A stretch of DNA of 41,485 nucleotides from Candidatus Sericytochromatia bacterium (GCA_036676495.1 JAKFCT010000084.1:1-41485); one strand, 5' to 3'. Positions 14,870 through 40,320 are shown, counted from the first letter of the stretch. The notes: a model not told the origin generated them from the letters alone. Made by a program: numbers and translations.

Positions 14870-14878
14870 CCGTTGGCG

Positions 14879-18362: not shown

Positions 18363-18497
18363 TCGCCCTCCTCTCGCTGACCGCCCGCTGGGAAAGCAGG
18401 GCGCTGGTCACCCGAGAGGTATCTTAATAGATCGTTACAATTGCCCGCAAGAGGCGCTTTGGCGCCGCTTCGTCGAGAGGTTAAGCGCCGAGCGGAA

Positions 18498-21069: not shown

Positions 21070-21537
21070 ATGCCGAAAGAACCCCCTTACAGCCAAGCTC
21101 CCGAACCGTTCCTGCGAACCGCGCGGGCGCTCGTCGAAACGTACAGCCAAATCATGGCGATCGATGACCGCCATGTCGAATCACTGGGCCTGACCCCGGC
21201 GCAGTTCGACGTGCTGGCCACCCTGGGAGACACTCCCGGGATGACCTGCAAGCAGCTCGGGGAAGGCACGCTCATCACCAAGGGGACCCTCACGGGGGTC
21301 CTGGATCGCCTCGAGAGCAAGGGGTTGATCAAGCGGTGCCGGGGCGAGGCCGACTCCCGGCAAGTCTTCGTCTCGCTCACTCCGGAAGGCGAAGCCGTCT
21401 TCACCGCGACCTTCCAGCCCCACCTCGACTACTTGGCCCAGTTCTGGGATCGCATGCCCCTGGACCGCCAGCAATTGCTCGTCGAACTGCTGGGGGAACT
21501 TCAAGCCGCGTTCCGCGGTCCTTCCAAAAAGCGCTAA
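21070..21537 (+). CDS. MarR-family transcriptional regulator
   Basis: GLTPAQFDVLATL, ITKGTLTGVLDRLESKGLI and DSRQVFVSLTPEG winged-helix motifs. Confidence 0.94.
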   Translation: MPKEPPYSQAPEPFLRTARALVETYSQIMAIDDRHVESLGLTPAQFDVLATLGDTPGMTCKQLGEGTLITKGTLTGVLDRLESKGLIKRCRGEADSRQVFVSLTPEGEAVFTATFQPHLDYLAQFWDRMPLDRQQLLVELLGELQAAFRGPSKKR

Positions 21538-25455: not shown

Positions 25456-27210
25456 ATGACTCCTAACTCCGACCCGACGATCAGCTGGATCACGGACGCC
25501 GCCGGCCTCGAAGAGGCCGTCCAGACGCTCTCGCGCTGCGAGGCGATCGGGCTCGACACCGAGACCACCGGCCTCGACCCGCATCGCTCCCGCCTGCGCC
25601 TGATCCAGCTCGCCACACCGGACGTCGTCTACCTGATCGACGCCAACCGCATGCGGGACCTGGGCCCCTTGAAGCCCCTCCTGGAGGCGCCCCGTCCCTT
25701 CAAGGTGCTTCACCATGCCAAGTTCGACGCCAAGTTCCTGCGCCGTCGCTACGGGATCCGCCTGAACGGGATCTTCGACACCATGCTCGCGAGCCAGCTC
25801 CTGGGCTCCCGCGACGGGCACAGCCTCGCCGCCGTCGCCTCCCGCTGGCTATCCATCACCATGGACAAGACCATGCAGCGCAGCGACTGGTCCGGCGACC
25901 TCAGCGCGGAGCAAGTTCGCTACGCGGCCCACGACGCCACGGTGCTTTTGCCCCTGCGCGAGGCCATGCGTGCGGCCATCCTCAGCGAGCGGATGAGCCG
26001 CATCGCCGCCCTGGAGTTCTCGGCGGCCCCCGCCATCGGGGGCATCGAGCTGGCAGGCATCCGGCTCGACGGCGTGAAGTGGCTCGCGCTCGCCCGCGAG
26101 CGCGAACGCGAGCACGCGGCCCTGGCCGAGGCCCTTCACCGGGAGCTGGCCCTCGCCGATCCCCAGCTCGCGCTCTTCCCCGAGCACGCCACTTCCCCGC
26201 TCAACCTCAACTCCGTGCCCCAGGTCATGCGTGCCCTGGAGCGGCTCGGGATCCGCGTCCCCGACACCGACGACCTCACCCTCGGCCCCCTCGCCACATC
26301 CCACCCGGTGATCGCCATGCTGCTCGAATACCGCCATGCCGCGAAAGCCCTCAGCTCCTACGGCGAATCCTTCCTGAGCTACATCCATCCCGTCACCGGC
26401 CGGATTCATCCGGAGTTCCACCAGCTGGGGGCCGACACCGGCCGCATGGCGGCCTCGAACCCCAACATCCAGCAGATCCCCAACCAGGAGCGCTACCGTG
26501 CCTGCTTCGTGCCCGACCCCGGCCGCAAGCTGATCATCGCCGACTACTCGCAAATCGAGCTGAGGATCCTGGCCGAGGTCACCCAGGATGCGCAGTTGCT
26601 CCATGCTTTCGAGAGCGGGGCCGATTTACACCGCCTCACGGCCTCAATGATGTTCGGAACCCCGCTCGAGCACGTGAGCAAGGACGAACGCCAGCGGGCC
26701 AAGGCCCTGAACTTCGGCATGGTCTACGGCATGGGGCCCAGCGGGCTCGCCACCCGGCTGGGTTGCAGCCTCGACGAGGCCAAGGAGCTGATCGATCGGT
26801 ACTTTGCGGCTTATCCGGGAGTGCGGGTCTGGCTGCGGCAGGCCGCCCGCAAGGCCGTGGAGACCGGGGAGTGCACGACGCTGGGAGGGCGGCGGATCCG
26901 CTTCGCCAAGCCGGATCCGGAGAACCGGCGGGCGGTGGCCGGCGTGGAGCGCTTCGGCAAGAACGCTCCCTTGCAGGGAACCAGCGCGGACATCACCAAG
27001 CGGGCGATCGCCCTCCTCGACGCGCGCCTTCCCGAGGGCGCCTGCATCGTCAACGTGGTCCACGACGAGATCGTCGTGGAGGCCCCCACGGAAACAGCCC
27101 CCTCCATGGCCGCGCGCTTGCGCGAGACCATGCAGGAGGCCGCAGAAGCTTACCTCACGCGCGTCCCCGTGACCGTCGAGGCCGACGTGGCCGACGCCTG
27201 GATCAAGTAA
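25456..27210 (+). CDS. Family A DNA polymerase with 3'-5' exonuclease but no 5'-3' nuclease (Aquificae-like PolA)
   Basis: ExoI DTETTG, ExoII HHAKFD and ExoIII YAAHD. Polymerase motifs TGRM..NPNIQQIP, ADYSQIELR, KALNFGMVYG, QGTSADI and VHDEIV. 584 aa. Confidence 0.93.
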   Translation: MTPNSDPTISWITDAAGLEEAVQTLSRCEAIGLDTETTGLDPHRSRLRLIQLATPDVVYLIDANRMRDLGPLKPLLEAPRPFKVLHHAKFDAKFLRRRYGIRLNGIFDTMLASQLLGSRDGHSLAAVASRWLSITMDKTMQRSDWSGDLSAEQVRYAAHDATVLLPLREAMRAAILSERMSRIAALEFSAAPAIGGIELAGIRLDGVKWLALAREREREHAALAEALHRELALADPQLALFPEHATSPLNLNSVPQVMRALERLGIRVPDTDDLTLGPLATSHPVIAMLLEYRHAAKALSSYGESFLSYIHPVTGRIHPEFHQLGADTGRMAASNPNIQQIPNQERYRACFVPDPGRKLIIADYSQIELRILAEVTQDAQLLHAFESGADLHRLTASMMFGTPLEHVSKDERQRAKALNFGMVYGMGPSGLATRLGCSLDEAKELIDRYFAAYPGVRVWLRQAARKAVETGECTTLGGRRIRFAKPDPENRRAVAGVERFGKNAPLQGTSADITKRAIALLDARLPEGACIVNVVHDEIVVEAPTETAPSMAARLRETMQEAAEAYLTRVPVTVEADVADAWIK

Positions 27211-28491
27211 CTAGCCGGCGACCGATGCCTCCGTCGCTTCCCGGACCCCCGGGGAGGCGGGGACCGTTCCGACCAGGGAGGCCTGCCCCCGGGGGCCGGT
27301 CTCGGGAAGCAAGAGCCCGCCCAGGGCCAGCACCCAGGAGAAGACGGCCCAGACGGCGAAGGCCGGCACGAAGGAGCCCGTCGCGTCGCGCATCAGGCCC
27401 ACCAGGACCGGCGACAGGGACGAGAACAGGTATGCGAAGCTGAAGACCGTGCCCATCATCAGGCTCACGTGCTGGGGGGTCATGCCCTTGAGCTCCATCG
27501 GAGTGGTGAACAAGGGGGAGACGTACGTGAACATCGCGGCCCCCAGCAGCACGGCCGCCACGGTGATGAAGACCGGGTTGGGGGTGAGGAACATGCCGAA
27601 GCCCGCGAAGCCCATGACGACGCCCGCCCCGATGATGAACGGCCGGCGCAAGCCCAGCTGCTTGGTGAGGAGGCCCGCGACGATGGCCGTGGGGATGCCC
27701 ACCAGGTTGAAGAGGCCGGTGAACTGCGAGGCCGTCGCCTTGCTCATGCCGAACGCCTGCATGTAGTACGTGGGAAGCCAGGTGTTGAAGGCCAGGTAGA
27801 GCGCCAGCGGGCCCGCGAAGGCGAGGGCGATGATCCAGGTCTCCTTCATCCTCCAGACGTCCGCGTAGCGCACCGTGGAGGCGGCTTTCTCACCGGCCGC
27901 GACCGGCTCGGCCACGTGATCCCGGCCCAGCACGGCCCAGGCGAGCATCAGGACGACGCTGAGCACGCCGTAGACGAGGAGGGCGTTACGCCAGCCGAGG
28001 GCGCCCGCGAGCGGGACCGTGGTGAAGAGGGTGACGGCGATCCCGGTGTTGACCGCGACGTTGTTGAAGGCGTTGACCAGTGGCATCTCGGACTTGGGGA
28101 ACCACTGCATGACCATGGGGCCCAAGAGCGTGACGACGATGGCGCCGCCGACACCGAAGACGAAGCGGCTCGCGAGGAAGAGCGTGAAGTCGGAGGTCAA
28201 GGGGGCGATCGCCGCGAAGCAGATGCAGAGCGATCCCAGCAAGATGGTCTTCTTGAGTCCGATCCGAACGGCCAGGAGGCCGGTGAGCAAGGGAGCCACG
28301 ACCTTGGCCACCGAGACCAGCGTGTTGATCATGCCGAGTTGCGCGCTGGTGATGTCGAACTCGGCCTGAAGCTCGCCGACCAGGGGGGTGATGGCGATCC
28401 ACGACAGCCCGAAGACGGCGTAGGTCAGGAAGAGCAAGGTCTCGATGACGAAGCGGTAGGGCGTGTGGGGGGCGGCGTTGGCCGAGGCCAT
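27211..28491 (-). CDS. MFS transporter (CynX-like/organic anion)
   Basis: About 12 hydrophobic helices; GLLAVRIGLKKT and MQWFPKSE motifs. Start ATG 28491 behind AAGGAG. Last gene of the ligase-SDR operon. Confidence 0.85.
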   Translation of the reverse strand: MASANAAPHTPYRFVIETLLFLTYAVFGLSWIAITPLVGELQAEFDITSAQLGMINTLVSVAKVVAPLLTGLLAVRIGLKKTILLGSLCICFAAIAPLTSDFTLFLASRFVFGVGGAIVVTLLGPMVMQWFPKSEMPLVNAFNNVAVNTGIAVTLFTTVPLAGALGWRNALLVYGVLSVVLMLAWAVLGRDHVAEPVAAGEKAASTVRYADVWRMKETWIIALAFAGPLALYLAFNTWLPTYYMQAFGMSKATASQFTGLFNLVGIPTAIVAGLLTKQLGLRRPFIIGAGVVMGFAGFGMFLTPNPVFITVAAVLLGAAMFTYVSPLFTTPMELKGMTPQHVSLMMGTVFSFAYLFSSLSPVLVGLMRDATGSFVPAFAVWAVFSWVLALGGLLLPETGPRGQASLVGTVPASPGVREATEASVAG

Positions 28492-28534
28492 GAGGTGCTC
28501 CTTTCTAAGCAGGTGTTCTCGCGAGCCAGGCCGC

Positions 28535-29275
28535 TTAAAGGACCAATCCCCCATCCACGCCCAGGACCTGGCCGGTGATGAAATCGGCGTCGTCGGAAGC
28601 GAGGAAGAGGTAGGCCTTGGCGATGTCTGCAGGGGTGCCGAGACGTCCGACGGGGGTCTTCTCGCTCATCGCGGCGAGCACCTTCTCGGGCATGGCGGCA
28701 GTCATGTCGGTCTGGATGAAGCCCGGAGCCACGGCGTTGGCGGTGATGCCCTTCCGGCCCAGTTCCTTGGCCCAGGACTTGGTCATGCCGATGACTCCGG
28801 CCTTGGTCGCGGCGTAGTTGGTCTGGCCGAAGTTGCCGTGGACTCCCACGACGCTGGACGCGCTGATGATCTTGCCGCGGCCCTGGGCGACCATCTGGGG
28901 CAGGACGGCCTGCGTGCAGTTGAAGACGCCCTTGAGGTTGACGTCGATGACCGCGTCGAACTGCTCCTCGGTCATCTTGCCGAGCGTCGCATCCATGGTG
29001 ATGCCGGCGTTGTTGATGAGCACGTCGATCCGGCCGAAGCGCTCCATGACCTGCTGGACCATCTCCGCGATCTCGGAGCGCCGGGTGACGTCGAGCGCGT
29101 GCGCCGACGCCTCGCCTCCGGCGCGAACGATCTGCCGGGAAACCTCCTGGACGGCCGCGGGGTCGCGATCGCAGACCGCGACCTGCGCTCCCTCACCGGC
29201 GAGGAGAAGGGCGGTTTCGCGGCCGATGCCGCGACCGGCTCCCGTGATGATGACGACTTTACCTTTGACTCTCAT
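28535..29275 (-). CDS. Acetoacetyl-CoA/3-oxoacyl reductase (PhaB/FabG-type SDR)
   Basis: TGAGRGIG, NNAGIT.D, GNFGQTNYAATKAG and VAPGFIQTDM motifs. The PHA context favours a PhaB role. Confidence 0.9.
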   Translation of the reverse strand: MRVKGKVVIITGAGRGIGRETALLLAGEGAQVAVCDRDPAAVQEVSRQIVRAGGEASAHALDVTRRSEIAEMVQQVMERFGRIDVLINNAGITMDATLGKMTEEQFDAVIDVNLKGVFNCTQAVLPQMVAQGRGKIISASSVVGVHGNFGQTNYAATKAGVIGMTKSWAKELGRKGITANAVAPGFIQTDMTAAMPEKVLAAMSEKTPVGRLGTPADIAKAYLFLASDDADFITGQVLGVDGGLVL

Positions 29276-29294
29276 GGGGTTCCTTTTCTAGGGG

Positions 29295-30842
29295 CTAGAC
29301 CGGGGCGAGCTCGGCCCCGAAGCGCTCGCGCAGGGCGGGCTTGAGGACCTTGCCGGTGGGGTTGCGGGGCAGTTCCGACGTGAAGACCACGGACTTGGGA
29401 AGCTTGTAACGGGCGACCCGTTCACTCAGATACGCGATCACCTGGGCCTCCGTGAGGCTAGCCTCCGTGAGGGCACCGGGGTGCCGAAGGACCACCACGG
29501 CGCGTCCGACCTCGCCCCACTTGGGATGGGGCACACCGATGACCGCCGCCTCCTGGATGGCGGGATGGCCGTGCAGGATCTTCTCCAGCTCCGCGGGATA
29601 GATGTTCTCTCCTCCCGAGATGATCATATCCTTCTTTCGGTCCACGATGGTGAAGTAGCCCTCGTCGTCTTGGCGCACCAGGTCCCCGGTGTGAAGCCAG
29701 CCGTCCCGGATGGCCTGGGCGGTCGCCTGGGGGTTCTTCCAGTAGCCCTTGATGACATGAGGGCCCCGGATCAAGAGCTCTCCCACCTCGCCGGGCGCGA
29801 CGTCCCGATCGTCATCGTCGACCACCCGCACGTCCAGGTGGAAATTGGGGAAGCCCACCGAGCCGGCTTTGCGCACGGCGTCCTTGGCATCGAGCGTGAA
29901 GCAGTTGGGTCCGGCCTCGGTGAGCCCGTAGCCCTGCTTGAAGGTGAGGCCCCGGCGGGCGTAAGCCTCGATCAAGGAGACGGGGCAGGGTGCGCCCCCC
30001 GAGATGAAGAATCGCATGGCCGAGAGATCCGCAGCCTGGAACGCGGGGCTTTCGAGCATCATCTGGAACATGGTCGGCACCGCGAAGACCACGGTGCAGC
30101 GCTCGCGCTCGATGAGCTGCAAGGACTGCGCGGCCTCGAACTGCCGCATCAGCACCACGGTGCCGCCGCGGTGGAAGAGGGGCGTGGTGAGGACGTTCAG
30201 GCCGCCGGTATGGAAGAAGGGCGTATGCGTCAGGGTGATGTCGTCGTTGCGGAGATCCCAGCCCACCTGGGTGTTGATGGCGTTCCAGGTGATGGTCCCA
30301 TGGGTCAGGACGGCGCCCTTGGGCTGGCCGGTCGTGCCCGAGGTGTAAAGGATGAGCCAGGGGTCGTCCAGATCGATCTCGGCGGGCTCGGGGACGCCCG
30401 AGGCGGCCACGGCGAGCAGCTCCTCGTACGAGGTCAGGAGGCCGTCCTCGTGGAAGGGAACGACGTACTCCAGGGAGACCTCGGGCAGGAGGGCCTTCAC
30501 CGTCTCCTCGAACTCGGGGCCGAAGAAGAGGAGGCGGGATTCGGAGTTCTGGAGGATGTAGGCGATCTCCGGACCGATCAGGCGGTAGTTGAGGGGGACC
30601 ATGATGGCGCCCAGCTTGCCGAGCGCGAAGAAGAGCTCAAGGGTTTCGCTGCAGTTGTAGGCGAGCACGGCGACGCGATCGCCCTTCTGGATGCCGTAGC
30701 GAAGGCGCAGGGCGGAAGCGAGCTTGTCGGCCCGCTGGTTGAAAGCCTTGTAGGTCAACCGGCGGCCGGCGGCCACGTCGATGAGGGCGGTCTTCTCGGG
30801 GGCGTAAAGGGCCCAGCGGCTCAGCCAGTCACCAAAGAACAT
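29295..30842 (-). CDS. Fatty-acid/acyl-CoA ligase (AMP-binding)
   Basis: YTSGTTGQPKG, GYGLTE, WLHTGD, DRKKDMIISGGENIYP and PRNPTGKV motifs. Start ATG 30842 behind GGAGG. Confidence 0.93.
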   Translation of the reverse strand: MFFGDWLSRWALYAPEKTALIDVAAGRRLTYKAFNQRADKLASALRLRYGIQKGDRVAVLAYNCSETLELFFALGKLGAIMVPLNYRLIGPEIAYILQNSESRLLFFGPEFEETVKALLPEVSLEYVVPFHEDGLLTSYEELLAVAASGVPEPAEIDLDDPWLILYTSGTTGQPKGAVLTHGTITWNAINTQVGWDLRNDDITLTHTPFFHTGGLNVLTTPLFHRGGTVVLMRQFEAAQSLQLIERERCTVVFAVPTMFQMMLESPAFQAADLSAMRFFISGGAPCPVSLIEAYARRGLTFKQGYGLTEAGPNCFTLDAKDAVRKAGSVGFPNFHLDVRVVDDDDRDVAPGEVGELLIRGPHVIKGYWKNPQATAQAIRDGWLHTGDLVRQDDEGYFTIVDRKKDMIISGGENIYPAELEKILHGHPAIQEAAVIGVPHPKWGEVGRAVVVLRHPGALTEASLTEAQVIAYLSERVARYKLPKSVVFTSELPRNPTGKVLKPALRERFGAELAPV

Positions 30843-30883
30843 CGGAGGTCCTCCATCACAACGAGGGGAAGCGATTGGAGGAA

Positions 30884-30916
30884 ACTGTAACAACCTCACG
30901 TTACATCGTCGTTACA
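30884..30916 (-). promoter_or_regulatory. Promoter with tandem SARP-type heptamer boxes (ligase-SDR-MFS operon)
   Basis: Minus strand reads TGTAACG-acga-TGTAACG-N9-TACAGT; repeat period 11 bp. Confidence 0.7.
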
Positions 30917-30979
30917 TCCACCTGCTTTTCGCCCGGGCGGAGAGCAGGCGCGTCATGGGCGGTCCCTGAGGCGTGAAGA

Positions 30980-31849
30980 TCAGGGGTTTGCGGGGGTGAC
31001 GGGAACGGAGTAGGTGGACAGCTCACCGTAGTATTCGAGCGACATCGGGTCGATCCGGGGATCGCGGGTGAAATGGATCTGCTCATATTTGATCAGGCCC
31101 AGACCGGGGGCGAACCAGCGCGTGATGGTCATTCCCATCTCGACCTTCCCGAAGAACCCCTTCGAATGCTCGGCATGGTAGCTGTTGGTCAGCTGAGAGG
31201 TACGCACCTCGACGCAATCCTTGAAGGTACCGGCCGCCGTCACCACCGTCTTCCCCGTGGCCGTGGTGGCCGTCTCCGCGCCCGCCATGACGGTGATCGT
31301 ATCTTGGTAGCCGTTGACGGTCTCGACGTGCGTGCTGCTGGAGGCCTCCCGGATCACTCTCACGCTGTCCTTGACGGGGAAAGGCAGCAGCAAGTGCGCC
31401 GATTCGGCCATGGACGGTTTTCGGTAGAGCCCATCGCGCTTCTTGAAGTAAAGGGTCGCGAAGGGGGTGATCGGCCCTGCGTTCAAGTTGAGCCCGCTCA
31501 CCCAGATGCTGGCGGTGGCCTGCTCGTCTTGGACCTCGACCGTGGTGACCTCATGCTGGAGGAGCACCCGATCCTCCGTGCGGCCCAGGGCGCCGCCGAG
31601 ATCCGAGATCTCCGTCGTCTGGTATTGCAGGGTCAACCCCTTGCGCAGGCCCAGGTAATCGTCGCTGGGGAGTTTCTCCGCGGTCTTGTCACCTGGCGAT
31701 TTCGTGTCCCCGTCGGATGCGTCGCCAGAAGAGCCTGTCTTGTCGCCCGAGCGCGACTCCTCCTGACCGGGAGGGGAGACGAGGCCTTGAAGCGGGATCC
31801 GCTCGCAACCGACGAGTAGCAATGCCACAAGAAAGACGTGAAGCCGCAT
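30980..31849 (-). CDS. Hypothetical lipoprotein
   Basis: Lipobox LVGC, Ser/Gly/Asp linker, beta-rich C-terminus with TAAGTFKDC...WFAPGLGLIK. GAGGAGG SD. Confidence 0.75.
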   Translation of the reverse strand: MRLHVFLVALLLVGCERIPLQGLVSPPGQEESRSGDKTGSSGDASDGDTKSPGDKTAEKLPSDDYLGLRKGLTLQYQTTEISDLGGALGRTEDRVLLQHEVTTVEVQDEQATASIWVSGLNLNAGPITPFATLYFKKRDGLYRKPSMAESAHLLLPFPVKDSVRVIREASSSTHVETVNGYQDTITVMAGAETATTATGKTVVTAAGTFKDCVEVRTSQLTNSYHAEHSKGFFGKVEMGMTITRWFAPGLGLIKYEQIHFTRDPRIDPMSLEYYGELSTYSVPVTPANP

Positions 31850-31921
31850 GGAGCCTCCTCAGAAGACGCTATGGAGGCTTTATACCCTTGCTTACTTGTG
31901 AGTATGCGCTCTGCGGGTCGG

Positions 31922-34900
31922 CTAGCTCAGACCCACGGCGTCCAGGGGCTGCAACTGGGTGATGCGGTCGAAGAGCAGTTGCGTCTCGGGCATGGGGTCG
32001 ACGCCCAGTTCCTCATCCAGGGCGACGACACAGCGATCGTACGTGCGCAGGGCCATGGGGCGATCGCCCTGCCGGTACTGGGCCGCCATCGCGATCCGGT
32101 ACGCCTCCTCGGCGCAACGATCCCGTTCGATCAGCCGCTGGGCCCAAAGCGCGGCCCCCGTATCATCCCCCTGAGCGTAGTACAGCCGAGCCAGCTTCAG
32201 GGCGCCCTCCTTGTAACGATCCGCCAGACGCTCCCGCTCCCGCTCGCACCACGCCTCGTACTGGGGAAATTCCACGAGGAACTCTCCCTCGGAGAGCTCC
32301 AGCGCCTGCTGATACAGCTCCAGGGGATTCCCTCCCAGTGCCTCCATCGCCTGGGCCTCATCCAGCAGGCGTTCGAACTCCGCCGCGTCGATCCAGACGT
32401 CAGGCCCGACCATCAGGCCGTAATTCGCGCCTTCCCTCAAGATGAAGCGGGGGATGCCTCCCTTGCGTTCGGGCTCCAGGACCTTGTTGAGGGCGTTGAG
32501 CGCCACCCGGAAGGTGCCATCCGCCGCTCCGAGCTCGAGGTCGGGCCAGAGGGTATCGATGATGCGCGGCTTGGGGATCATCTGCCCGCGTTGCGCCAGG
32601 AAGAGGTGAAAGAGCTGGCGGGCCTTCTCGCGGCCCCAGGCCCGTCCCCCGATCTCCGATTGGCCCCTCCAGACCCGAAACGCGCCCAGCGTGCGGATCC
32701 GGAGCGCGTCTTCGCGCAAGACCGGGGCCTCGACGACGAGACCCGCTTCGCTCAGCCAGGGCGAGAGGAGGGCCGGGGCGATGCCCCGGTCGAGCGCCGT
32801 TCCCAGGAAGGCCTGGGCCTGCGCGGAGTCGGCGAAACCGAGCAAGGTCGGCTTGCTCAGCAGATACCCGACGCCATGGCGCTTCAGGAGTTCGAGCACG
32901 CGCCGGATCCGGGTGAGGACCGCCTTGCCTTCCCCGAGGGCCATGGCGAGCCGCGCCGACCACAAGGCGACCAGGGTCATGCCGAAGGGATCCCCGCAGC
33001 GCTCGTATCCGGATTGCGCCTGCATCAGCCAGCGCTCGGCCCTGGGATCCCCGTGCGCCACGTAAATGCTCCCCTGAGCCAGGCTCAGCATGGCGCAGAG
33101 CCAGGCATCCCCCGTCTCCTTGGCAATTTCGAGGCCGTCCTTGGCATGGGTCTCGGCGAGGTGGAGGTCTCCTCGGCGTCCCGCGACGAAGGCGAGGCCC
33201 ATCAAGCTCTCGGCCTTGAGGCGGGGGATGCCGATGGCGCGGGCGAGGGCGATCGCCTCCCGGTAAACGCCTTCCGCCTCGTCCAGCTGGCCCTCCAGCA
33301 AGGCCGCATGCCCCAGGCGAATGAGCGCAACCGCTTCGGTCCAGAGCGCCCCCTGCTCCTTGGCACGTTCCAAGCCCCGAGAGGCCAGCTCCCGTGCCGC
33401 CAGAGGCTCTCCCTGCAAGGCCTCGATCAGCGAGAGCACCAGCGACGCCTCGCGATGGGCCTTGGTCCCCGCCGTGGGATCATGGGGCTGACTCAGCGCG
33501 GCTTGAAGGACGGCCCGGGCCTCCTGGAGACGGCCGGTCCTCAGAAAGATCCGTGCCGACTGCTCGGAAAGTTCGGGCAGGCGCTCCCGGGCTTCCCGGA
33601 AGAGGGCCTCCGCCGCCTCCGAGTCTCCCTGGTTGAGCTTGTTCTCGGCGAGCATCACCAGCAGCTCCGTCCGGCGGTCGGAATCCTGGGTTTCGGCAAG
33701 GGCCTCCTCGAGATGCATCGAGGCCTTGGCAGGCTGAAGGGTATCCAGGTAGACCAGAGCCTTGGAGGCCTGGGCGCGGCTGCGGCCCTCGGCGTTTGCT
33801 CCATAGCCGCGGTAGGCGCGGTCGTACCAGTCGAGCGCCGCCTCGAAGCGTGAGGTCAACCGGCATGCATCCCCCTGGTGGATGGCCAGAGCCGGAGCCT
33901 GATCGACGAGCGCGGGCGAGAGGCGCGAAAGCCAGGATTCCAGGCGCGCGTACCGGCCCTGGTTCACGAGGCCTGGAGCCGCGGCGGCCAGGCCCTCCGC
34001 GGCCTTGCCTTCCTCGCCGGCTTCCAGGTAGTGATCGATGGCGCCTTCGAGGTCCCCGCGGCGCTTCAGGACCTCGGCCACGGCCAGATGCGCCGGCTGC
34101 AAGCGGTTTTCCGCCGCGAGGCGCTCGCGCAGGAACTCTCTAAACAAGTGATGGTAGCGATACCCGCCGTCGCCCAGGGGGACCAGGAAGACTCCGCGCT
34201 CGTTGAGCGCCGCCAGGTCGTCGGAGGCGTCTCGCCCGGCCAGTTCGCGGCAGACGTCGGGCCAGAGCTGCGGCAACGGCGCCGTCGCGAAGAGGAAGTC
34301 GCGATCGCGCTCGCTCAAGCGATCCAGGACCTCGGAAGCCAGGTAATCGAAGAGGTCCCGCAGCGAGCCCCGGGACTCCGGAATCTCGCCCCCCTGGTGC
34401 TGGGCCAAGAGCCTCAAGGCCATCGGCCAGCCCTCGGTCTCACTCATCAAGCGCGTGATTGCCTCGGCCTCCAGCGGCAAGCCCAGGATCTCAGCGAAGA
34501 GGGCTTCCACCTCGTCGGCGCGGAAGGCCAGCTCCGCTTGAACGATGAAGAGCGCATCCCCTCGCAGGCGCCACTTGGGGAGGCCGGGAAGATCGGGGCG
34601 CACGCGGGACGCCAGGACCACGTGGAGCTTGGGCAAACGCTGGCCTATCAAGTGGTTGGCCAGCAACAAGGCGGATTCCGAGCCTTGGAGATGATGGAAG
34701 TCGTCGAGCACCAGCCAGGTATCGGTGTCGAGACGATCCAGCAGCGCGTCGGCGAGGGCCTCGACGGCGGCAAGTCCCTGCTTGGCGGCGCCCCCCGGCA
34801 GCGAGAGCAAGGCCAGCATCCGATCCGCGACGCCCGGGTAGGCGCGCTGGAAGAGATGGGCGAGATGGAGCAAGAAGAGCTGAGCGTCCGCTTCGCGCTC

Positions 34901-35119
34901 GGAGATCTCGTACCAGAGCGCGGCATGCCGGCGGTCGTGCAGGTAGCCCGCGAGCAGCGAGCTCTTGCCGTAGCCCGTTCCTCCCAGGACCAGGGTCAGG
35001 GGGACGTCCATCGACGCATCGAGCAAACGGTGCAGCCGCTCGCGCCGCATGTGGGTTCGCTTGAGCGGGGGAACGATGAACTTCGTGCGGGTGACGAGCG
35101 CGTCTCCGAAATCGGACAA
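31922..35119 (-). CDS. MalT-like STAND ATPase/TPR regulator with C-terminal winged-helix and BTAD (SARP-type) domains
   Basis: TRTKFIVP, GGTGYGKS, LVLDDFH, TEGWPMAL and YRYHHLF (MalT-like). IRTLGAF, WPD, WIDA.EF, EEAYR and EELGVDP (SARP/BTAD). Probable TTG start at 35119 behind GAGG, with TTGAAG-18-TATGAT upstream. Confidence 0.9.
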   Translation of the reverse strand: MSDFGDALVTRTKFIVPPLKRTHMRRERLHRLLDASMDVPLTLVLGGTGYGKSSLLAGYLHDRRHAALWYEISEREADAQLFLLHLAHLFQRAYPGVADRMLALLSLPGGAAKQGLAAVEALADALLDRLDTDTWLVLDDFHHLQGSESALLLANHLIGQRLPKLHVVLASRVRPDLPGLPKWRLRGDALFIVQAELAFRADEVEALFAEILGLPLEAEAITRLMSETEGWPMALRLLAQHQGGEIPESRGSLRDLFDYLASEVLDRLSERDRDFLFATAPLPQLWPDVCRELAGRDASDDLAALNERGVFLVPLGDGGYRYHHLFREFLRERLAAENRLQPAHLAVAEVLKRRGDLEGAIDHYLEAGEEGKAAEGLAAAAPGLVNQGRYARLESWLSRLSPALVDQAPALAIHQGDACRLTSRFEAALDWYDRAYRGYGANAEGRSRAQASKALVYLDTLQPAKASMHLEEALAETQDSDRRTELLVMLAENKLNQGDSEAAEALFREARERLPELSEQSARIFLRTGRLQEARAVLQAALSQPHDPTAGTKAHREASLVLSLIEALQGEPLAARELASRGLERAKEQGALWTEAVALIRLGHAALLEGQLDEAEGVYREAIALARAIGIPRLKAESLMGLAFVAGRRGDLHLAETHAKDGLEIAKETGDAWLCAMLSLAQGSIYVAHGDPRAERWLMQAQSGYERCGDPFGMTLVALWSARLAMALGEGKAVLTRIRRVLELLKRHGVGYLLSKPTLLGFADSAQAQAFLGTALDRGIAPALLSPWLSEAGLVVEAPVLREDALRIRTLGAFRVWRGQSEIGGRAWGREKARQLFHLFLAQRGQMIPKPRIIDTLWPDLELGAADGTFRVALNALNKVLEPERKGGIPRFILREGANYGLMVGPDVWIDAAEFERLLDEAQAMEALGGNPLELYQQALELSEGEFLVEFPQYEAWCERERERLADRYKEGALKLARLYYAQGDDTGAALWAQRLIERDRCAEEAYRIAMAAQYRQGDRPMALRTYDRCVVALDEELGVDPMPETQLLFDRITQLQPLDAVGLS

Positions 35120-35198
35120 GGTTGACCTCTCATGCCCTCGAGCGTTCCTGCGCCCATCATAAGGCAGAAGGGGCGTTCCCTTCAATCTTCCGCTAATT

Positions 35199-35335
35199 GT
35201 CCCCCCTTGACGGGGGGACCGGCGAAGCCGAGGGGGGTGTTTGCCGGCGCAGCCATGGCGTTCCTCGTTCTAAGGAACCTGAAGCAGTAACACCCCCCTC
35301 TCGGCTACGCCGAGGTCCCCCCGTCAAGGGGGGAC
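35199..35335. repeat. MITE/REPIN-like inverted-repeat element
   Basis: Perfect 22-bp inverted termini GTCCCCCCTTGACGGGGGGACC / GGTCCCCCCGTCAAGGGGGGAC, each itself a hairpin. Imperfect inner arms extend the inverted repeat to about 45 bp. Confidence 0.8.
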
Positions 35336-35348
35336 GAGACAAGGAAGA

Positions 35349-36431
35349 TTAGACTGAGCGCTCGGAGAGCCAGGCGTTGAGCTTGGGGAAGAGGTTCTTC
35401 GAGGCGGAGCGGCCCGCCACGATCCCCACGTGCCCCGCCCGGATGGGCAGCTCCGTCGCATCCGAGCTGGAAACCACCGAAAGCAGCGGCTTGGACTGGC
35501 TGGGCTGGGCGATGTGATCCAGCTCCGCGTAGACGTTGAGCAACGAGCACCGGATGTTTTCCAGCAAGACCGGCCGGCCTCCCAGCCGCAACTCACCCTT
35601 GATGAGCTTGTTCTGCTGGTAGAACTCCGTGATCCACTGGCGGTAGGCGGCCCCCGCGAAGGGAATGCCATCGTTGACCCAGCGGTTCATGGCCATCCAG
35701 CCCTTCACGTACTCCCGGTCCTCGATGCGGTCTAAGAGGGCGGCGTAGGTGCCCAGGTAGTTCTGCATCGGCTTGAGCATCTTGGCTCCCCAGTCGAGCA
35801 TCTCGGTGGGCACCAGCTTGCAGGTCTCGGCCACCCGGTCGGCGTTGAAGTAGCGGGGATTCAGCCAGGCCGTGTAGAGGCCGGCATCGGTGAAGTCGAT
35901 CGGAGTGGCGAGCAAGACCAGGTTCTTCAGGGGGGCGTCGGGATGGCATGCGGCGTACATCGCCGAGAGCGTGCCGCCGATGCAGTAGCCGAGCATGCTC
36001 AGCTCCTTGGCACCCGAGTGGCGCAGGACCTGCTTCACGGCGCGGGGCAGGTATTCGAGGACGTAATGGTCCATCGAGAGGCCCGCATCCTCTTCGCCGG
36101 GGTGGCCCCAGTCGATCATGAACACGTCATAGCCTTCCGAGACCAGGTACTCCACCAAGCTGTTGCCCGGCATCAGATCCAGGATGTAAGGGCGGTTGAT
36201 GAGGGCGTAGACCAGCAGAATAGGCACCGCATGCCGGCGCTCCGGCTGATGGTAGCGATAGAGCTTGGCCTTGTTCTTGGTCCAGACGACGTCCTTGGGC
36301 GTCATGCCCACGGGCGCCGCCACGGGCTGGGCCACGTGCTGCCAGGCGGCTTCCGCCTGGGTCCAACTCCGCTCGAACTCCCGGCGAAGCGTCTCGGTGA
36401 GAGAATCTAAGGTCTCGGATGGCTGGGTCAT
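35349..36431 (-). CDS. phaC: Polyhydroxyalkanoate synthase, class III/IV-size catalytic subunit
   Basis: 360 aa. TPKDVVWTKNKAKLYRY, YALINRPYILDL.PGNSLVEYL, DWG, lipase-like box GYCIGG, catalytic Asp (ELDHI) and His (AGHVG). Confidence 0.95.
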   Translation of the reverse strand: MTQPSETLDSLTETLRREFERSWTQAEAAWQHVAQPVAAPVGMTPKDVVWTKNKAKLYRYHQPERRHAVPILLVYALINRPYILDLMPGNSLVEYLVSEGYDVFMIDWGHPGEEDAGLSMDHYVLEYLPRAVKQVLRHSGAKELSMLGYCIGGTLSAMYAACHPDAPLKNLVLLATPIDFTDAGLYTAWLNPRYFNADRVAETCKLVPTEMLDWGAKMLKPMQNYLGTYAALLDRIEDREYVKGWMAMNRWVNDGIPFAGAAYRQWITEFYQQNKLIKGELRLGGRPVLLENIRCSLLNVYAELDHIAQPSQSKPLLSVVSSSDATELPIRAGHVGIVAGRSASKNLFPKLNAWLSERSV

Positions 36432-36453
36432 GGCGCGTCGGGCTCCTGTTCGC

Positions 36454-36792
36454 TTACGGCTTGGAGATGGAGTCGACGCGGGCCGCGAGATCCTCGACCT
36501 GGCGGCGAAGGGCGCCGACGGTCATGAGATCCCAGCCGGGAACGTGCTGGGTGGTGCTCGCCATGGTCTGCTCGGCCAGGCGGGCCATCTCCTCGGAGTG
36601 GACCTTGGCCTGCGAGACGAGGACTTCGAAGACCTTCTCGCCGTCGTGGCGCATGGTGTGGGCCTGCTTCATCCAGGTGGCGGCGAGGGTCTCGAGCTGA
36701 TCCTGGCTCCAGTTGAGGGCCTTGGCGTTCGAAAGGGCGGCATCCAGCATCTCGCCGGTCAGGGTGGAAAGGATGGGGGCTGCAGTCGTCAT
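36454..36792 (-). CDS. Putative phasin / PHA granule-associated protein
   Basis: Small amphipathic helical protein with a C-terminal LRRQVEDLAARVD coiled coil, located between the PhaR-like gene and phaC. GAGGAG SD. Confidence 0.55.
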   Translation of the reverse strand: MTTAAPILSTLTGEMLDAALSNAKALNWSQDQLETLAATWMKQAHTMRHDGEKVFEVLVSQAKVHSEEMARLAEQTMASTTQHVPGWDLMTVGALRRQVEDLAARVDSISKP

Positions 36793-36819
36793 GGACATTC
36801 TCCTCGTGAGGGGGGCGGG

Positions 36820-37245
36820 CTACTTGGAGGGACGCTTGGGTTTGGGGGCCTCGACGCCCCGTTCCGGGGTGACCGTGCGGACGGTCATTCCCGAATCGAG
36901 ACGTTCGAGGATGAGGTCGAGCCGATTGAAGAGGGCGTCGAGCTTGCCCTCCATGGCGTCGAGGCGATCGTCGAGGGCGTCGACCTTGGCCTCCAGGTCG
37001 ACCACTTGGCCCGCGAGCCGGGCGAGATCGGTCTTGGTGAGCAGACGCAGGCTGTCCCAGTGCTTTTCCAGGCTCTCCCGCGAGAGCTGATGCTGCGTGA
37101 GGGACTGCTCGCGGGTGGCGCTCATCCAGCTGACGAAGGACTCGGTACCGAGCATCTCCTGCATCGGCTTGCTCCACAGCTCCTCGGAGCGGTCGTAGAG
37201 CTCTTTCCAGGTCTTGAAGAGATCCGGGGGGGCTTGGGTGGTCAT
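36820..37245 (-). CDS. PHA synthase accessory subunit, Bacillus PhaR(class IV)-like / short PhaE-like
   Basis: About 141 aa. DLFKTWKELYD...W...TESFVSWM...TKTDLARLA...DLEAKVD pattern resembles Bacillus PhaR. First gene of the phaC operon. Confidence 0.7.
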   Translation of the reverse strand: MTTQAPPDLFKTWKELYDRSEELWSKPMQEMLGTESFVSWMSATREQSLTQHQLSRESLEKHWDSLRLLTKTDLARLAGQVVDLEAKVDALDDRLDAMEGKLDALFNRLDLILERLDSGMTVRTVTPERGVEAPKPKRPSK

Positions 37246-37282
37246 GGCGCTCATCCTCTTGCTATCCAACCTTGCTGAGGCA

Positions 37283-37328
37283 AGACTAGAGCGAGGACGT
37301 TACAGCCTCGTTACGAGAGGTCGTTACA
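37283..37328 (-). promoter_or_regulatory. Promoter with three SARP-type heptamer boxes (PHA synthase operon)
   Basis: Minus strand reads TGTAACG-N6-CGTAACG-N4-TGTAACG-N9-TAGTCT. Confidence 0.7.
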
Positions 37329-37332
37329 AGAG

Positions 37333-38604
37333 CTAGCGCTGGTTGAGGATGTCCAGGAGCCAGGATTTGGCGGCCGGAGCGTAGATCAGCTCCATGTGGT
37401 TGAGGGGCAGGACGTCCTTGGCCCGGAGCTTGGCGCCGGCACGGGTCATGTCCTGGGTATGCGTGGCGCTCTTGAGGAAGACCACGCCGTCGGCGGGACC
37501 GGTCGTCTCGTTGAGGACGCCCGCGAGGTCGGGCTGATCGCCGGCCAGGACGGCGAGTTCGACGCCGGGATCCAGGGGGTTCTTGCGCAGGCGGTCGATG
37601 AAGTGTCCCCCCTGGGCGATCGCCTTGTCGATACCGGCGCTCTCGCTGACGAAGCCCCGGCCTCCGTGGTAGGTCGTGTACCAGTCCTGCTCGATCCGGG
37701 GCAGCGGGTAAACGTCGTCCCAGCGGTAGAGGAGCTGGGACTGGCCCGGGAAGAAGTTGCCCGCGTCCGTCATCAGGGTCAAGGGGGTGGTATCGATCCA
37801 GAGTCCCATGACCAGCATCTTGGTCCAGGACATCGGAGCGTTGCGGAGGCGGTCGTCCTGCTCGGGGTAGAGCCCGTAGTTGACCAGCGGGTGGCGGAAG
37901 GGGAAGTCGAGGCCGAGGTGAGGGCCACCCAGCAGGATGAGGCGGCGCACGTCCTTGGCGTAAGGGGTCATCCAGGGTTGGCGGACGCCCGAGACCAGCG
38001 CGCGGGCCGCGACGGTCCCCTTGCTGTGGGCCACGAGATCGACCTCCGCCGAGCCGGTCACTTCGCGGATCCGGGCGATCGCCCACGCAATCTGCTCGGC
38101 CCAGAGCAGGTTGTCGCCATGCCGATGCGCGAACGTCAAGGCGAAGACCCGCTTTCCCTTGCCCGAAAGGTAAGGTGCAAGGCCTTCCTTGTCGTGGGGA
38201 TCGTGCCAGGAGGTGTTGGCATCGACCATGACGCCGTGAATCAAGAGCACCGGAGGGCCCTCGCCCTGATCCCAGCCGCGCGCGTAGTGAAGGAGGACGT
38301 CGCGCGAAGGGGGGACGGCCGTCCCGAAGGCCTCGATCAGCTCGGGATCGCGTTGCCGGCCGTTGGGGCGGGCCTTTTCTTGGGGAAAGTCACGCGAGGT
38401 GGCGGTGAGGCGCTCGATTCGATCCCAGTTTTTCCCCCGGACGGTCGCGCTCAGCTTGTAAGGACCAGCGGCACGCGCCGCGACGGTCGAGGCCGAGGGG
38501 CCCGAGGAGAGGTCAATAGCCCCGAGCCCGTCGGGGCGTCCGCAGCCAGCCATGGTTATAACGCTCGCACACAGGGCGATCCAGAACTGCTTCGGACGAG
38601 CCAT
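37333..38604 (-). CDS. Lipoprotein alpha/beta hydrolase (lipase/esterase)
   Basis: Lipobox MAGC; PVLLIHG oxyanion motif; AHSKG nucleophile elbow; DGVV and NHMEL for Asp/His. Start ATG 38604 behind GAGGA (alternative 38616). Confidence 0.85.
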   Translation of the reverse strand: MARPKQFWIALCASVITMAGCGRPDGLGAIDLSSGPSASTVAARAAGPYKLSATVRGKNWDRIERLTATSRDFPQEKARPNGRQRDPELIEAFGTAVPPSRDVLLHYARGWDQGEGPPVLLIHGVMVDANTSWHDPHDKEGLAPYLSGKGKRVFALTFAHRHGDNLLWAEQIAWAIARIREVTGSAEVDLVAHSKGTVAARALVSGVRQPWMTPYAKDVRRLILLGGPHLGLDFPFRHPLVNYGLYPEQDDRLRNAPMSWTKMLVMGLWIDTTPLTLMTDAGNFFPGQSQLLYRWDDVYPLPRIEQDWYTTYHGGRGFVSESAGIDKAIAQGGHFIDRLRKNPLDPGVELAVLAGDQPDLAGVLNETTGPADGVVFLKSATHTQDMTRAGAKLRAKDVLPLNHMELIYAPAAKSWLLDILNQR

Positions 38605-38952
38605 CGGGGTCCTCATCGACTTCCCTTGCGTTTCGCTGCCACCACTCGTTCAGATATCGTTCATACACCCGATTGACTTGCTCGATCAAGTGTTCGTCGA
38701 AAACGCAAATCCCGATGCCCCGGAGCTTACTGGCCCCTGGGTCCCGCAAGCCCTGTCGCGAAGCGGATCGCCGATTTCCCTCCGGCCCAGCGCGGCCGCC
38801 GCGTCCATCCTACCTTCCGGACGGCTCGCCTCCGAGAGCCAAGAGGGAGAACTCCGAGGGACAAGAGGGAGAAACCGAGGCGCCCTTCGCGTCCGATTGA
38901 ACCACGTCCCCGAAGGGTACAAATCCCCTACTCACCTCATTGCGAGCCCACC

Positions 38953-40320
38953 ATGCCACCCAAAGCCCACCGATACCCAGCCTTCTTACCCCCCCGGATT
39001 CGCGAAGGGCTCACGCTTGGGGCGTTTGCCCTGATGCTGGCCATCCTGACGCTCATGGTCGCGGCGGCGCCCTCGGCCTGCCCCCTGCCGCTTTCTCTCG
39101 ACCGTCTCGAATTCCTGCAGGCGCTCTTGGCCGTGCTGGTCACGGGCGCCGGCTTCACGGTTTACTCATGGACCCGCTGGCGAGGCAGCCAGCGCGAGCT
39201 GGAGATCGCCAAGCAAACCAACGTGGCCATCGCGGCTCGCCTTGAAGCCGAACGTGCCTTGAGAGAGAGTCAGGATCGCTTCCAGGCCCTCGCCAACGCG
39301 ACGTTCGAAGGCCTGCTCATCCATGACCAGGGCATCGTCCTGGACGTCAACGAGGCCTTCACCAATCTTGCCGGCCTCACGCGCGAGGACATGCTTGGGA
39401 AATCCATCCTCACCTTCTTTCCGGAGTCGCTCCAGGGCCAGCTGAGGGAGCGGATCCGGAGGCCGCTGGCCTCGGGCACGGAGACCGCCTCCCCTTACGA
39501 GATCGAGGTGCCGACCCCGGCCGGAGAGGTGCTTCACCTGGAGGTTCGCGTCAAGGCCATGCCTTACCAGGGTCGAATCGTGCGCGTGGCCGCCTTCCAG
39601 AACATCACCGAGCGCCGCCGGCTCGAGCGGGCCAAGAGCGAGCTGATCTCGGTGGTGAGCCATGAGCTGCGCAGTCCGCTCGGCTCCCTTCACAACTCCC
39701 TCGAGCTCCTCGCGAACGGCGTTGCCGGTCCCCTGCCCGAACGGGCCCAGCGCATGGCCGAAATTGCCCTGAATTCGGCAGGCCGCTTGATTCGCCTCAC
39801 GAACCAGACCTTGGAGTACGAGCAGCTCAGTAACGGCCGTCTCGCGCTGAACCTGAGCGCCTGCACCGCCGCCGGCCTGTTGCAACAGGCGGCGGACACG
39901 CTGCGCGGCCTCGCCGACTCCCGGGACATCACCTTGTCCGTCGAGGCCGAGCCCTTCCCACTGCACGCCGACGCGGATCGGATCATCCAGGTGCTCGTCA
40001 ACTTCCTGAGCAACGCCCTCAAGTTCGCACCTCCCGGCAGCACGGTCCGGCTGAGGTCCCACCGGATGGAGGACGAGGACCGATTCGAGGTGCGGGACGA
40101 AGGCCCCGGCATTCCGGCGGATCAGGTGGACGCGATTTTCGAGCGCTTCGTGCAGCTCGAACCGGCGCCGCACTGTCCCCAACGCGGCATCGGGCTGGGC
40201 CTGGCCATTTCTCGCGACCTGATCGCCCTGCACGGGGGGCGCATCGGCGTGGAGAGCCCGCCGGGCGAAGGCAGCACGTTCTTCTTCACCTTGCCTCGAG
40301 ACGAAAAGGGCGCCCCCTAA
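38953..40320 (+). CDS. Membrane PAS-domain sensor histidine kinase
   Basis: Two TM segments, PAS domain (ATFEGLLI...DVNEAF), H-box SHELRSPL, N-box NFLSNALKF, and G-boxes DEGPGI and GIGLGL. Start uncertain. Confidence 0.92.
   Translation: MPPKAHRYPAFLPPRIREGLTLGAFALMLAILTLMVAAAPSACPLPLSLDRLEFLQALLAVLVTGAGFTVYSWTRWRGSQRELEIAKQTNVAIAARLEAERALRESQDRFQALANATFEGLLIHDQGIVLDVNEAFTNLAGLTREDMLGKSILTFFPESLQGQLRERIRRPLASGTETASPYEIEVPTPAGEVLHLEVRVKAMPYQGRIVRVAAFQNITERRRLERAKSELISVVSHELRSPLGSLHNSLELLANGVAGPLPERAQRMAEIALNSAGRLIRLTNQTLEYEQLSNGRLALNLSACTAAGLLQQAADTLRGLADSRDITLSVEAEPFPLHADADRIIQVLVNFLSNALKFAPPGSTVRLRSHRMEDEDRFEVRDEGPGIPADQVDAIFERFVQLEPAPHCPQRGIGLGLAISRDLIALHGGRIGVESPPGEGSTFFFTLPRDEKGAP

Follow-up and report, generated by a model that had tools for sequence, protein, structure and literature searches.

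A 41,485-nucleotide stretch of DNA from Candidatus Sericytochromatia bacterium (GCA_036676495.1, JAKFCT010000084.1:1-41485), referred to here in its full length as the window, carries a polyhydroxyalkanoate (PHA) synthase operon, an operon for an acyl-coenzyme A (CoA) ligase, a reductase, and a transporter, and, between them, the gene for a 1065-amino-acid regulator that combines a MalT-type STAND ATPase with a C-terminal module of the type seen in Streptomyces antibiotic regulatory proteins (SARPs). Sequence comparison makes it likely that this regulator is an activator whose C-terminal SARP module binds direct repeats of TGTAACG placed where a −35 element would otherwise lie, and that it turns on both the PHA synthase genes and the operon predicted to supply their precursors. 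The evidence comes from the geometry of the two promoters, from the rarity of the repeats elsewhere in the window, from their conservation alongside the regulator gene in related and distant loci, and from the domain structure of the regulator itself.

Box geometry of the two promoters

On the minus strand, the ligase promoter (30916-30884) reads TGTAACG-acga-TGTAACG-tgaggttgt-TACAGT, and the PHA promoter (37328-37283) reads TGTAACG-acctct-CGTAACG-aggc-TGTAACG-tcctcgctc-TAGTCT. Their parts are listed below; L001 and L002 are two of the related loci described in the next section.

30910-30916, minus strand: distal box of the ligase promoter, TGTAACG, found by reading of the sequence, by box scan, and by promoter alignment
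30899-30905, minus strand: proximal box of the ligase promoter, TGTAACG; the whole site scores 33.5 bits by weight matrix
30884-30889, minus strand: candidate −10 hexamer of the ligase promoter, TACAGT, 9 nt past the proximal box; best −35 match 3/6
37322-37328, minus strand: distal box of the PHA promoter, TGTAACG, 13 bp from the middle box and kept only in the close relatives L001 and L002
37309-37315, minus strand: middle box of the PHA promoter, CGTAACG; aligned core invariant in all five aligned PHA promoters
37298-37304, minus strand: proximal box of the PHA promoter, TGTAACG; the whole site scores 37.3 bits by weight matrix
37283-37288, minus strand: candidate −10 hexamer of the PHA promoter, TAGTCT, 9 nt past the proximal box; −35 match at most 2/6

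An earlier note on this DNA, made from the sequence alone, had read both promoters in exactly these letters and at these positions, and had given each of them an 11-bp repeat period, 9 nt between the proximal box and the −10 hexamer, and no −35 element. The 9-nt gap was recovered at both promoters when counted from the end of the TGTAACG heptamer; with GTAACGN taken as the repeat unit, it is 8 nt. The absence of a −35 was recovered as well: the best match to TTGACA at spacers of 16 to 18 was 2/6 for the PHA promoter and 3/6 for the ligase promoter, and a consensus promoter scan of positions 27000-39000 returned no two-hexamer promoter at either box site. The 11-bp period needed narrowing, as it holds for the promoter-proximal pair of boxes in both promoters and does not extend to the distal PHA box, which lies 13 bp away, as can be read from the spacer that the note itself gives. 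The PHA promoter starts 4 nt past the stop codon of the preceding gene, and the ligase ATG at 30842 is preceded by a GGAGG ribosome-binding site.

The same note had likened this arrangement to the binding sites of SARP activators, and the comparison holds against the published layout. In SARP targets, the direct repeats are described as spaced by 11 or 22 bp, the 3′ one lying 8 bp from the −10 (PMC10936776), and SARP sites as heptameric repeats that overlap the −35, some of them with three repeats (PMC10972967). Both window promoters have this geometry, as do all 15 of the strict box pairs described below.

Within the window, YGTAACG occurred 12 times against an expectation of 2.11, a count reached in 0 of 100 shuffles, and 5 of the 12 copies lie within the two promoters. 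The tandem GTAACG-N4-YGTAACG was matched exactly at the two promoters and nowhere else in the window, and the pattern GTAAC-N6-GTAAC, with or without N10-TAnnnT, was found twice as compared with 0 times in 500 dinucleotide shuffles. The weight matrix was trained on 17 sites, all of them outside the window; it set the two promoters far apart from the next best window position, at 5.8 bits, and from a background with a mean of −43.3 (standard deviation, 10.5). Two lone boxes were considered and set aside. A TGTAACG at 18433-18439 (minus strand), about 70 nt upstream of a lysine-rich small open reading frame (ORF) starting at 18360, has no partner box, is not among the 12 best matrix positions, and probably arose by chance. 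A CGTAACG at 14877-14883, which lies at a gene end beside a terminator-like hairpin, likewise has no partner and is taken as a chance occurrence; the matrix score at 14883-14851 was 1.4 bits.

Co-occurrence of the boxes and the regulator gene

A profile scan of genome contigs with an alignment of 34 orthologs of the regulator gave 51 stretches that matched a pattern, and 10 loci were confirmed (L001 to L010). The closest relatives of the regulator, at 47 to 80% identity, come from Candidatus Sericytochromatia and from assemblies named "Cyanobacteria bacterium," and below about 41% identity there is a large group from Chloroflexota and others. Among 8000 candidates scored, 838 proteins had an E value of 0.001 or lower, and databases already label the relatives of the regulator as BTAD or MalT/SARP proteins. 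The gene order that is kept runs from a lipase-like gene through the phaR-like gene and phaC to the regulator and then, by way of an optional ligase gene, to the reductase and an optional MFS transporter gene; the ligase is present in 6 of the 9 loci L001 to L009.

In the 163,510 bases of the window and the 10 loci, both strands included, the strict pair GTAAC-N6-GTAAC occurred 15 times. Every one of these pairs lies on the strand of the regulator, and every one is followed by the 9-nt gap and TAnnnT. In 200 dinucleotide shuffles of the same sequences, the pair occurred on average 0.01 times (maximum, 1), and the full pattern did not occur. The strict pair was present at the PHA promoter in all six sequences that contain the region (the window, L001 to L004, and L009); at the promoter that follows the regulator, 9 of 11 sequences had it (the window, L001 to L005, and L008 to L010). 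The other two, L006 and L007, are close to each other and have one mismatch each in the distal core, with CAAGCT as the hexamer in L006. Where the MFS gene is separated from the operon, in L004 and L005, it has a box pair of its own with one core mismatch, the hexamer in L005 being CATGCT. In L010, an Anaerolineae contig whose regulator is 35% identical to that of the window, the pair starts 28 nt past the regulator stop codon and before a KAS III-like gene, and across the loci a box often starts within about 100 nt of that stop codon. The earlier note had named loss of the repeats from homologous loci that keep the regulator as grounds for giving up its proposal; boxes were found wherever the promoter region lay on the contig.

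In alignments of the diverged promoters, the invariant positions were the two cores, the T, A, and final T of the hexamer, the ribosome-binding site, and the ATG, and the spacers between boxes varied freely while the phase was kept. The best −35 match was at most 3/6 at all 24 sites examined. In the L003 promoters, a third GTAACG was considered as a further box, 14 bp away and lacking a −10 after it, but the reading was dropped: this copy supplies TAACGT exactly 9 nt past the second box, and TAACGT is now read as the candidate −10. Such a TAACGT lies inside a further GTAACG copy at L003 6880-6912, L003 16083-16115, and L004 13079-13111, where the −10 mimics a box.

More distant members of the family were found on plasmids. 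A protein search of a plasmid collection gave 325 records, 6 of which cover at least 80% of the query; all six were examined, and their regulators are about 30% identical to the regulator of the window. On the five Deinococcus plasmids, the gene directly after the regulator is in every case annotated as a 3-hydroxybutyrate dehydrogenase, ABC transporter genes flank this pair on four of the five, and the loci L012 and L016 have an alpha/beta hydrolase gene at their edge. On the Chloroflexota plasmid, the next genes on the same strand encode a beta-ketoacyl reductase, KAS III, and an acetyl-CoA hydrolase/transferase. Identity to the window reductase is 54% for the reductase of this plasmid and only about 30% for the Deinococcus dehydrogenases, so that the conserved elements are the regulator, the box geometry, and the metabolic theme rather than one target gene.

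A scan of the plasmid loci that allowed one core mismatch and required TAnnnT gave 5 matches in 64,362 bases, distributed over four of the six loci, all of them on the strand of the regulator and upstream of the neighbouring genes named above; in 100 shuffles the mean was 0.01 and the maximum 1. In L013 (6645-6690) and L016 (6495-6541), the hexamer ends 6 to 7 nt before the dehydrogenase ATG, a position that fits a −10 element driving a leaderless transcript. The dehydrogenase hexamer is TACACT, except in L013, where it is TAGAGT, and by eye it also lies just upstream of the ATG in L012, L014, and L015. The regulator coding sequence of L012 and L014 includes the box region within its 3′ end.

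These relatives bear on the regulon for carbon storage that the earlier note had proposed. In the window the idea stands, as the phaR-like gene and phaC lie directly under a box; among the Deinococcus relatives it does not carry over in that form, as 3-hydroxybutyrate dehydrogenase and ABC transporter genes are found there instead. Because the regulator and its box precede these genes in Deinococcus, the theme of the family appears to be 3-hydroxybutyrate/PHA metabolism in general and not synthesis alone.

The regulator, its proposed action, and alternative readings

The features of the regulator gene are as follows.

35156-35185, minus strand: the regulator's own promoter, TTGAAG-18-TATGAT, without boxes; the sole two-hexamer promoter found in 27000-39000
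31922-35119, minus strand: regulator gene, 1065 amino acids, with MalT-type STAND ATPase, TPR region, and C-terminal SARP module
31925-32722, minus strand: SARP module, residues ~800-1065, consisting of winged helix and BTAD

The earlier note had placed the gene at these coordinates and had called its product a MalT-like BTAD protein. The coordinates are right, with a TTG start and ribosome-binding site that are kept in L001 and L002, and both halves of the description were borne out by profile and by fold. Residues 12-511 match positions 5-518 of the NCBIfam MalT model (E, 3.7e-59), although the regulator as a whole scores 200.6 bits, far under the equivalog cut-off of 537. The region after the ATPase matches PF17874 TPR_MalT with 55.7 bits (cut-off, 45), and the Walker A (G49, G51, and K52) and Walker B (D139 and D140) residues are invariant in 34 orthologs. 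At the other end of the protein, residues 802-1055 match positions 25-267 of the AfsR model (E, 3.1e-16), with BTAD at an E value of 5.7e-17 and a weak match to Trans_reg_C (E, 0.011). Among sequences of the Protein Data Bank (PDB), the last 252 residues match AfsR 35-268 (E, 1.8e-6), and the winged helix by itself could be aligned to AfsR residues 23-100.

The last 275 residues were modelled with AlphaFold2 from an alignment of 11 sequences; the model had a mean predicted local distance difference test score (pLDDT) of 89.9 and a predicted template modelling score (pTM) of 0.85. The six best PDB matches to this model by Foldseek were AfsR (8k60 and 8hvr) and EmbR (2fez and 2ff4), with E values of 1.8e-11 to 6.7e-11 and template modelling (TM) scores of 0.71 to 0.78, and these were followed by generic TPR proteins at E values of 3.9e-4 and worse. 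No LuxR/GerE domain was found in the regulator with Pfam or NCBIfam, nor was a receiver domain. The module occupies residues ~800-1065 of 1065, after the ATPase and TPR region, and thus departs from the customary layout of small, medium, and large SARPs, in which the module is N-terminal and any further domains follow it. On profile and model grounds, the protein is best called a MalT-type STAND regulator with a complete C-terminal SARP module as its output. Its recognition helix, ADGTFRVALNALNKVLEP, was nearly invariant in 11 sequences and is the most conserved peptide of the protein, having been chosen automatically as the search pattern; this agrees with the invariance of the GTAAC core in the boxes. 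Covariation between recognition helix and box was not visible, both being too conserved. The TATGAT of the regulator's own promoter is kept in L001, L002, L004, and L009, and no box pointing to autoregulation was found upstream of the regulator in the window or in six loci.

Together, these features suggest the following course of events. The regulator would be made constitutively from its own box-free promoter, and a putative metabolite, together with ATP, would switch it on through its STAND/TPR half. Two SARP modules would then settle side by side on the TGTAACG repeats, or three at the PHA promoter; at both promoters, the repeats stand in for the absent −35, with 9 nt between the last of them and the −10. 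Once bound, the modules would recruit RNA polymerase, as AfsR does at afsS, and activate jointly the unit of phaR-like gene, 114-amino-acid gene, and phaC and the unit of ligase, reductase, and MFS transporter. The lack of a −35 at all 24 sites examined is indirect support for such recruitment. From the family assignments of these genes, a putative supply chain can be drawn in which MFS uptake is followed by CoA activation by the ligase, formation of (R)-3-hydroxyacyl-CoA by the reductase, and polymerisation by PhaC. Box binding, activation, the switching of activity, and the exact substrates are all points that we infer.

Several studied regulators share parts of this design. MalT of Escherichia coli, the STAND activator of the maltose regulon, resembles the regulator in its N-terminal ~500 residues, its TPR region, and its Walker residues, and by analogy with MalT the probable switch of the regulator is ATP with a small-molecule inducer. 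At its C terminus, MalT has a LuxR-type helix-turn-helix where the regulator has a winged helix and BTAD. EmbR of Mycobacterium tuberculosis (2fez and 2ff4) has the SARP fold (TM, 0.74 to 0.76 normalised to the query) and is a SARP-type protein with non-antibiotic target genes; unlike the regulator, it lacks an ATPase, carries an FHA domain at its C terminus, and comes from an actinobacterium. The regulators of PHA genes described in other bacteria, PhaR/AniA in proteobacteria, PhaQ in Bacillus, and PhaD in Pseudomonas, act on pha genes from a position within or beside the pha cluster; they are small, belong to unrelated families, and work mostly as granule-linked repressors. To our knowledge, none of them is a STAND or SARP protein. 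The phaR-like gene of the window resembles the Bacillus synthase subunit and not a DNA-binding regulator.

AfsR, a large SARP of Streptomyces coelicolor, likewise joins a SARP fold, a STAND-type ATPase, and TPR in one protein, and, as predicted for the regulator, uses two 11-bp-phased direct repeats over the −35 that end about 8 bp before the −10 (PMC10936776). AfsR is described as a side-by-side dimer with one protomer per repeat; its contacts are to the first 8 bp of every 11-bp repeat, it overlaps the −35, and it reaches both sigma region 4 and the core enzyme (PMC10936776). The two differ in the order of their parts, which is ATPase-TPR-SARP here and SARP-ATPase-TPR in AfsR, in the ATPase half, which here matches MalT, in box sequence, in targets (predicted to be PHA genes here, afsS for AfsR), and in host, which here is Sericytochromatia-like. 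PimR and the SARP-LAL proteins of Streptomyces unite a SARP module with a LAL/MalT-like ATPase-TPR half, and their operators consist of heptamers repeated directly with 4-nt spacers, of which pimM has three (PMC10972967, PMC3367932, and PMC5930380). PimR differs in that its SARP module is N-terminal, its site lies off the −35 (PMC10972967), and its setting is an actinobacterial antibiotic cluster. The CheY-SARP proteins of Deinococcus (COG3947, e.g., Deide_19260) also carry a C-terminal SARP-type activator domain on a signalling protein outside the actinobacteria, and their targets are described as still to be studied; by the same description their input is a receiver, unlike the STAND ATPase of the regulator (PMC3564903). 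A 2024 review describes SARPs as exclusive to actinobacteria (PMC10972967). The setting here is not that of actinobacterial secondary metabolism, as the relatives are of the Sericytochromatia type and the predicted targets are PHA synthase and acyl-CoA genes. A literature search at the level of titles and listings found no publication that links a MalT-SARP-type protein to PHA genes or defines its operator.

Geometry alone does not name the protein that binds the boxes, as OmpR/PhoB-type response regulators also use 11-bp-phased heptamer direct repeats over the −35. The boxes might thus be operators of another winged-helix protein, likeliest of the OmpR/PhoB type and perhaps the partner of a PAS histidine kinase encoded close to the cluster (38953-40320, plus strand), and the MalT-SARP protein would then have its targets elsewhere. 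The kinase has tblastn counterparts in L001, L002, L004, and L009, at positions that vary, and in L004 it lies between the regulator and the ligase promoter. What makes this explanation unlikely is the absence of a receiver or OmpR-type domain from all 61 window ORFs scanned with Pfam, where no partner response regulator for the kinase was seen, and the finding that the only other transcription factor of the window is a MarR protein (21070-21537). In addition, response regulators annotated in the neighbourhood of L013 and L015 have, by their coordinates, lengths of about 145 to 150 amino acids, which is too short for a DNA-binding domain, and in all three phyla, whatever the target genes, the MalT-SARP gene is the only constant companion of the boxes.

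The repeats might also be no operators of this kind at all, and instead be the −35 element of an alternative sigma factor, an RNA element, or the remnant of a repeat or mobile element. Many alternative-sigma −35 elements contain an AAC core, as the repeats do. Their spacing does not suit a −35, as 9 nt separate the end of the proximal box from the hexamer and 20 nt that of the distal box; the predicted start is downstream of the boxes, whose spacers vary while the phase is kept; Rfam gave 0 matches at gathering scores over the whole window; and the pair is confined to promoters beside the regulator rather than scattered. Very little probability is therefore left for such an origin. We also think it quite improbable, if somewhat less remote, that the MalT-SARP protein binds the boxes as a repressor or dual regulator which blocks promoters able to fire by themselves. 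The boxes do cover a region that RNA polymerase must occupy, and a few sites, the ligase promoter of the window among them, have a TG one base ahead of the hexamer, which could remove the need for a −35. This extended −10 is not conserved, however, as the three positions before the hexamer hold just 0.2 to 0.3 bits in the weight matrix, and the weak −35 matches at all 24 sites give little reason to expect self-firing promoters. BTAD/SARP modules are known as activators, and a fixed phase and a fixed distance to the −10 are requirements of published SARP activators (PMC10936776 and PMC10972967).

Besides the geometry shared with PhoB-type sites, several points weigh against the regulator being the activator that works through these boxes. 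The case is built on comparison throughout, all loci outside the plasmids are contigs assembled from metagenomes, and the window, L001, and L002 are too closely related (78 to 80% regulator identity) to be taken as three independent observations. Two of the plasmid loci, L014 and L015, failed the one-mismatch scan and by eye have versions with two core mismatches followed by TACACT, and the dehydrogenase promoter of L012 has the proximal box only. The residues aligned to the AfsR base contacts T88 and R92 are V and A, so the details of AfsR recognition are not transferable. A C-terminal SARP module is unlike that of every studied SARP we know of, and for a module in this position dimerisation and contacts to sigma and the polymerase core are proposed by analogy with AfsR.

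A broader proposal is possible, although we would sooner expect it to fail than to hold. It is that a large non-actinobacterial SARP lineage, spread over Sericytochromatia, Chloroflexota, and Deinococcota, combines a MalT-type STAND half with a C-terminal SARP module, reads a single kind of operator (heptamers of the GTAAC type, phased at 11 bp and ending 9 nt before the −10, with no −35), is dedicated to the 3-hydroxybutyrate/PHA cycle through synthase, reductase, 3-hydroxybutyrate dehydrogenase, and transporters, and probably senses a 3-hydroxyacid or its CoA ester. If this were true, the mechanism of the Streptomyces "antibiotic" activators would be an offshoot of a much wider device of primary and storage metabolism.

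The literature sees SARPs as actinobacterial antibiotic switches; here, a SARP module is found in a non-photosynthetic relative of the cyanobacteria, with PHA genes as its predicted targets. Activation by the MalT-SARP protein would provide a concrete operator, TGTAACG-N4-TGTAACG-N9-TAnnnT, for a family that in most places is annotated no further than "BTAD domain-containing putative transcriptional regulator," and a candidate master switch of PHA metabolism in lineages without a described one. The Deinococcus carriers, among them Deinococcus ficus CC-FR2-10 (L015) and D. psychrotolerans S14-83 (L012), are cultivable, so that the prediction is testable there, and the regulator and its promoters could serve as an inducible pair in bioplastic engineering.

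Genes and minor features of the locus

All genes of the system lie on the minus strand and follow one another, in the order of transcription, as lipase-like gene, phaR-like gene, 114-amino-acid gene, phaC, regulator, 289-amino-acid ORF, ligase, reductase, and MFS transporter. Apart from the regulator they are:

37333-38616, minus strand: lipase-like alpha/beta hydrolase, with weak family matches; the PhaZ7 depolymerase model matches far below threshold
36820-37254, minus strand: phaR-like gene, resembling a class IV synthase subunit (NCBIfam TIGR02132; E, 5.7e-15, below the curated cut-off)
36454-36798, minus strand: ORF of 114 amino acids between the phaR-like gene and phaC, with a 114-amino-acid counterpart at L003 7396-7740
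35349-36431, minus strand: phaC, class III/IV-type PHA synthase catalytic subunit (TIGR01836, 386 bits; cut-off, 365.3; also matched by Pfam)
30980-31849, minus strand: lipoprotein-like ORF of 289 amino acids between the regulator and the ligase promoter, without a family
29295-30842, minus strand: acyl-CoA synthetase of the fatty-acid-CoA ligase family (Pfam AMP-binding; NCBIfam PRK06187, 512 bits; cut-off, 476)
28535-29275, minus strand: FabG-like 3-oxoacyl reductase of the SDR family (TIGR01830, 315.5 bits; cut-off, 297.75; PDB matches)
27211-28554, minus strand: MFS transporter (Pfam MFS_1), overlapping the end of the reductase gene and in the same operon

The product of phaC scores above the cut-off of the class III-type model. 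The phaR-like product matches positions 2-102 of the 189 in the Bacillus PhaR model with 55.7 bits, as compared with a cut-off of 148.4, and the gene is conserved in L001 to L004; its start is probably the ATG at 37245, which is conserved across the aligned PHA promoters. No match to PhaE was found. The 114-amino-acid gene possibly encodes a phasin, the sole match being a weak one to Phasin (E, 0.02). An ORF of 249 amino acids at 36428-37177 was rejected as a full-length gene, as its two halves match different frames in L002. By this comparison, it is a high-G+C artefact over its first half, the true genes being the phaR-like gene and the 114-amino-acid ORF.

The best PDB matches of the acyl-CoA synthetase are fatty-acyl-CoA and feruloyl-CoA synthetases. 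The reductase is the most constant partner of the regulator and follows it in L001 to L009. The 289-amino-acid ORF has a lipobox-like N terminus, with a hydrophobic stretch ending in LVGC, and none of the 10 related loci gave a tblastn match to it; the regulator of L001 and L002 is followed directly by the ligase promoter. On this comparison, the ORF is outside the conserved system.

The 5′ leader of the ligase gene (30843-30880, minus strand) is identical between the window and L001 and nearly identical in L002. It contains a CCTCC about 20 nt upstream of the GGAGG and another directly after it, the second of which was flagged as a hairpin by the consensus scan, and either could pair with the GGAGG. 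A function for this pairing is doubtful, both pairings being broken in L002.

Upstream of the lipase-like gene (38617-38700, minus strand), a promoter of the type TTGATC-18-TATGAA is conserved in the window, L001, and L002. GTAAC/GTTAC boxes are found upstream of this gene in L001 (5480-5550), where there are two at 13 bp, and in L004 (420-480), where inverted and direct copies are mixed; in the window, no GTAAC box lies upstream of it. The arrangement in the window, L001, and L004 was too inconsistent for the gene to be kept as a member of the regulon, and this putative depolymerase may be part of it in only some of the genomes.

Between the phaC stop codon and the regulator promoter, at 35201-35333, a 17-base, G/C-rich, palindrome-like word is present in two exact copies of opposite orientation about 100 bp apart, against a chance expectation of 0.04. 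The stretch is absent from this place in L001 and L002, and in the window it looks like a small inserted inverted-repeat element.

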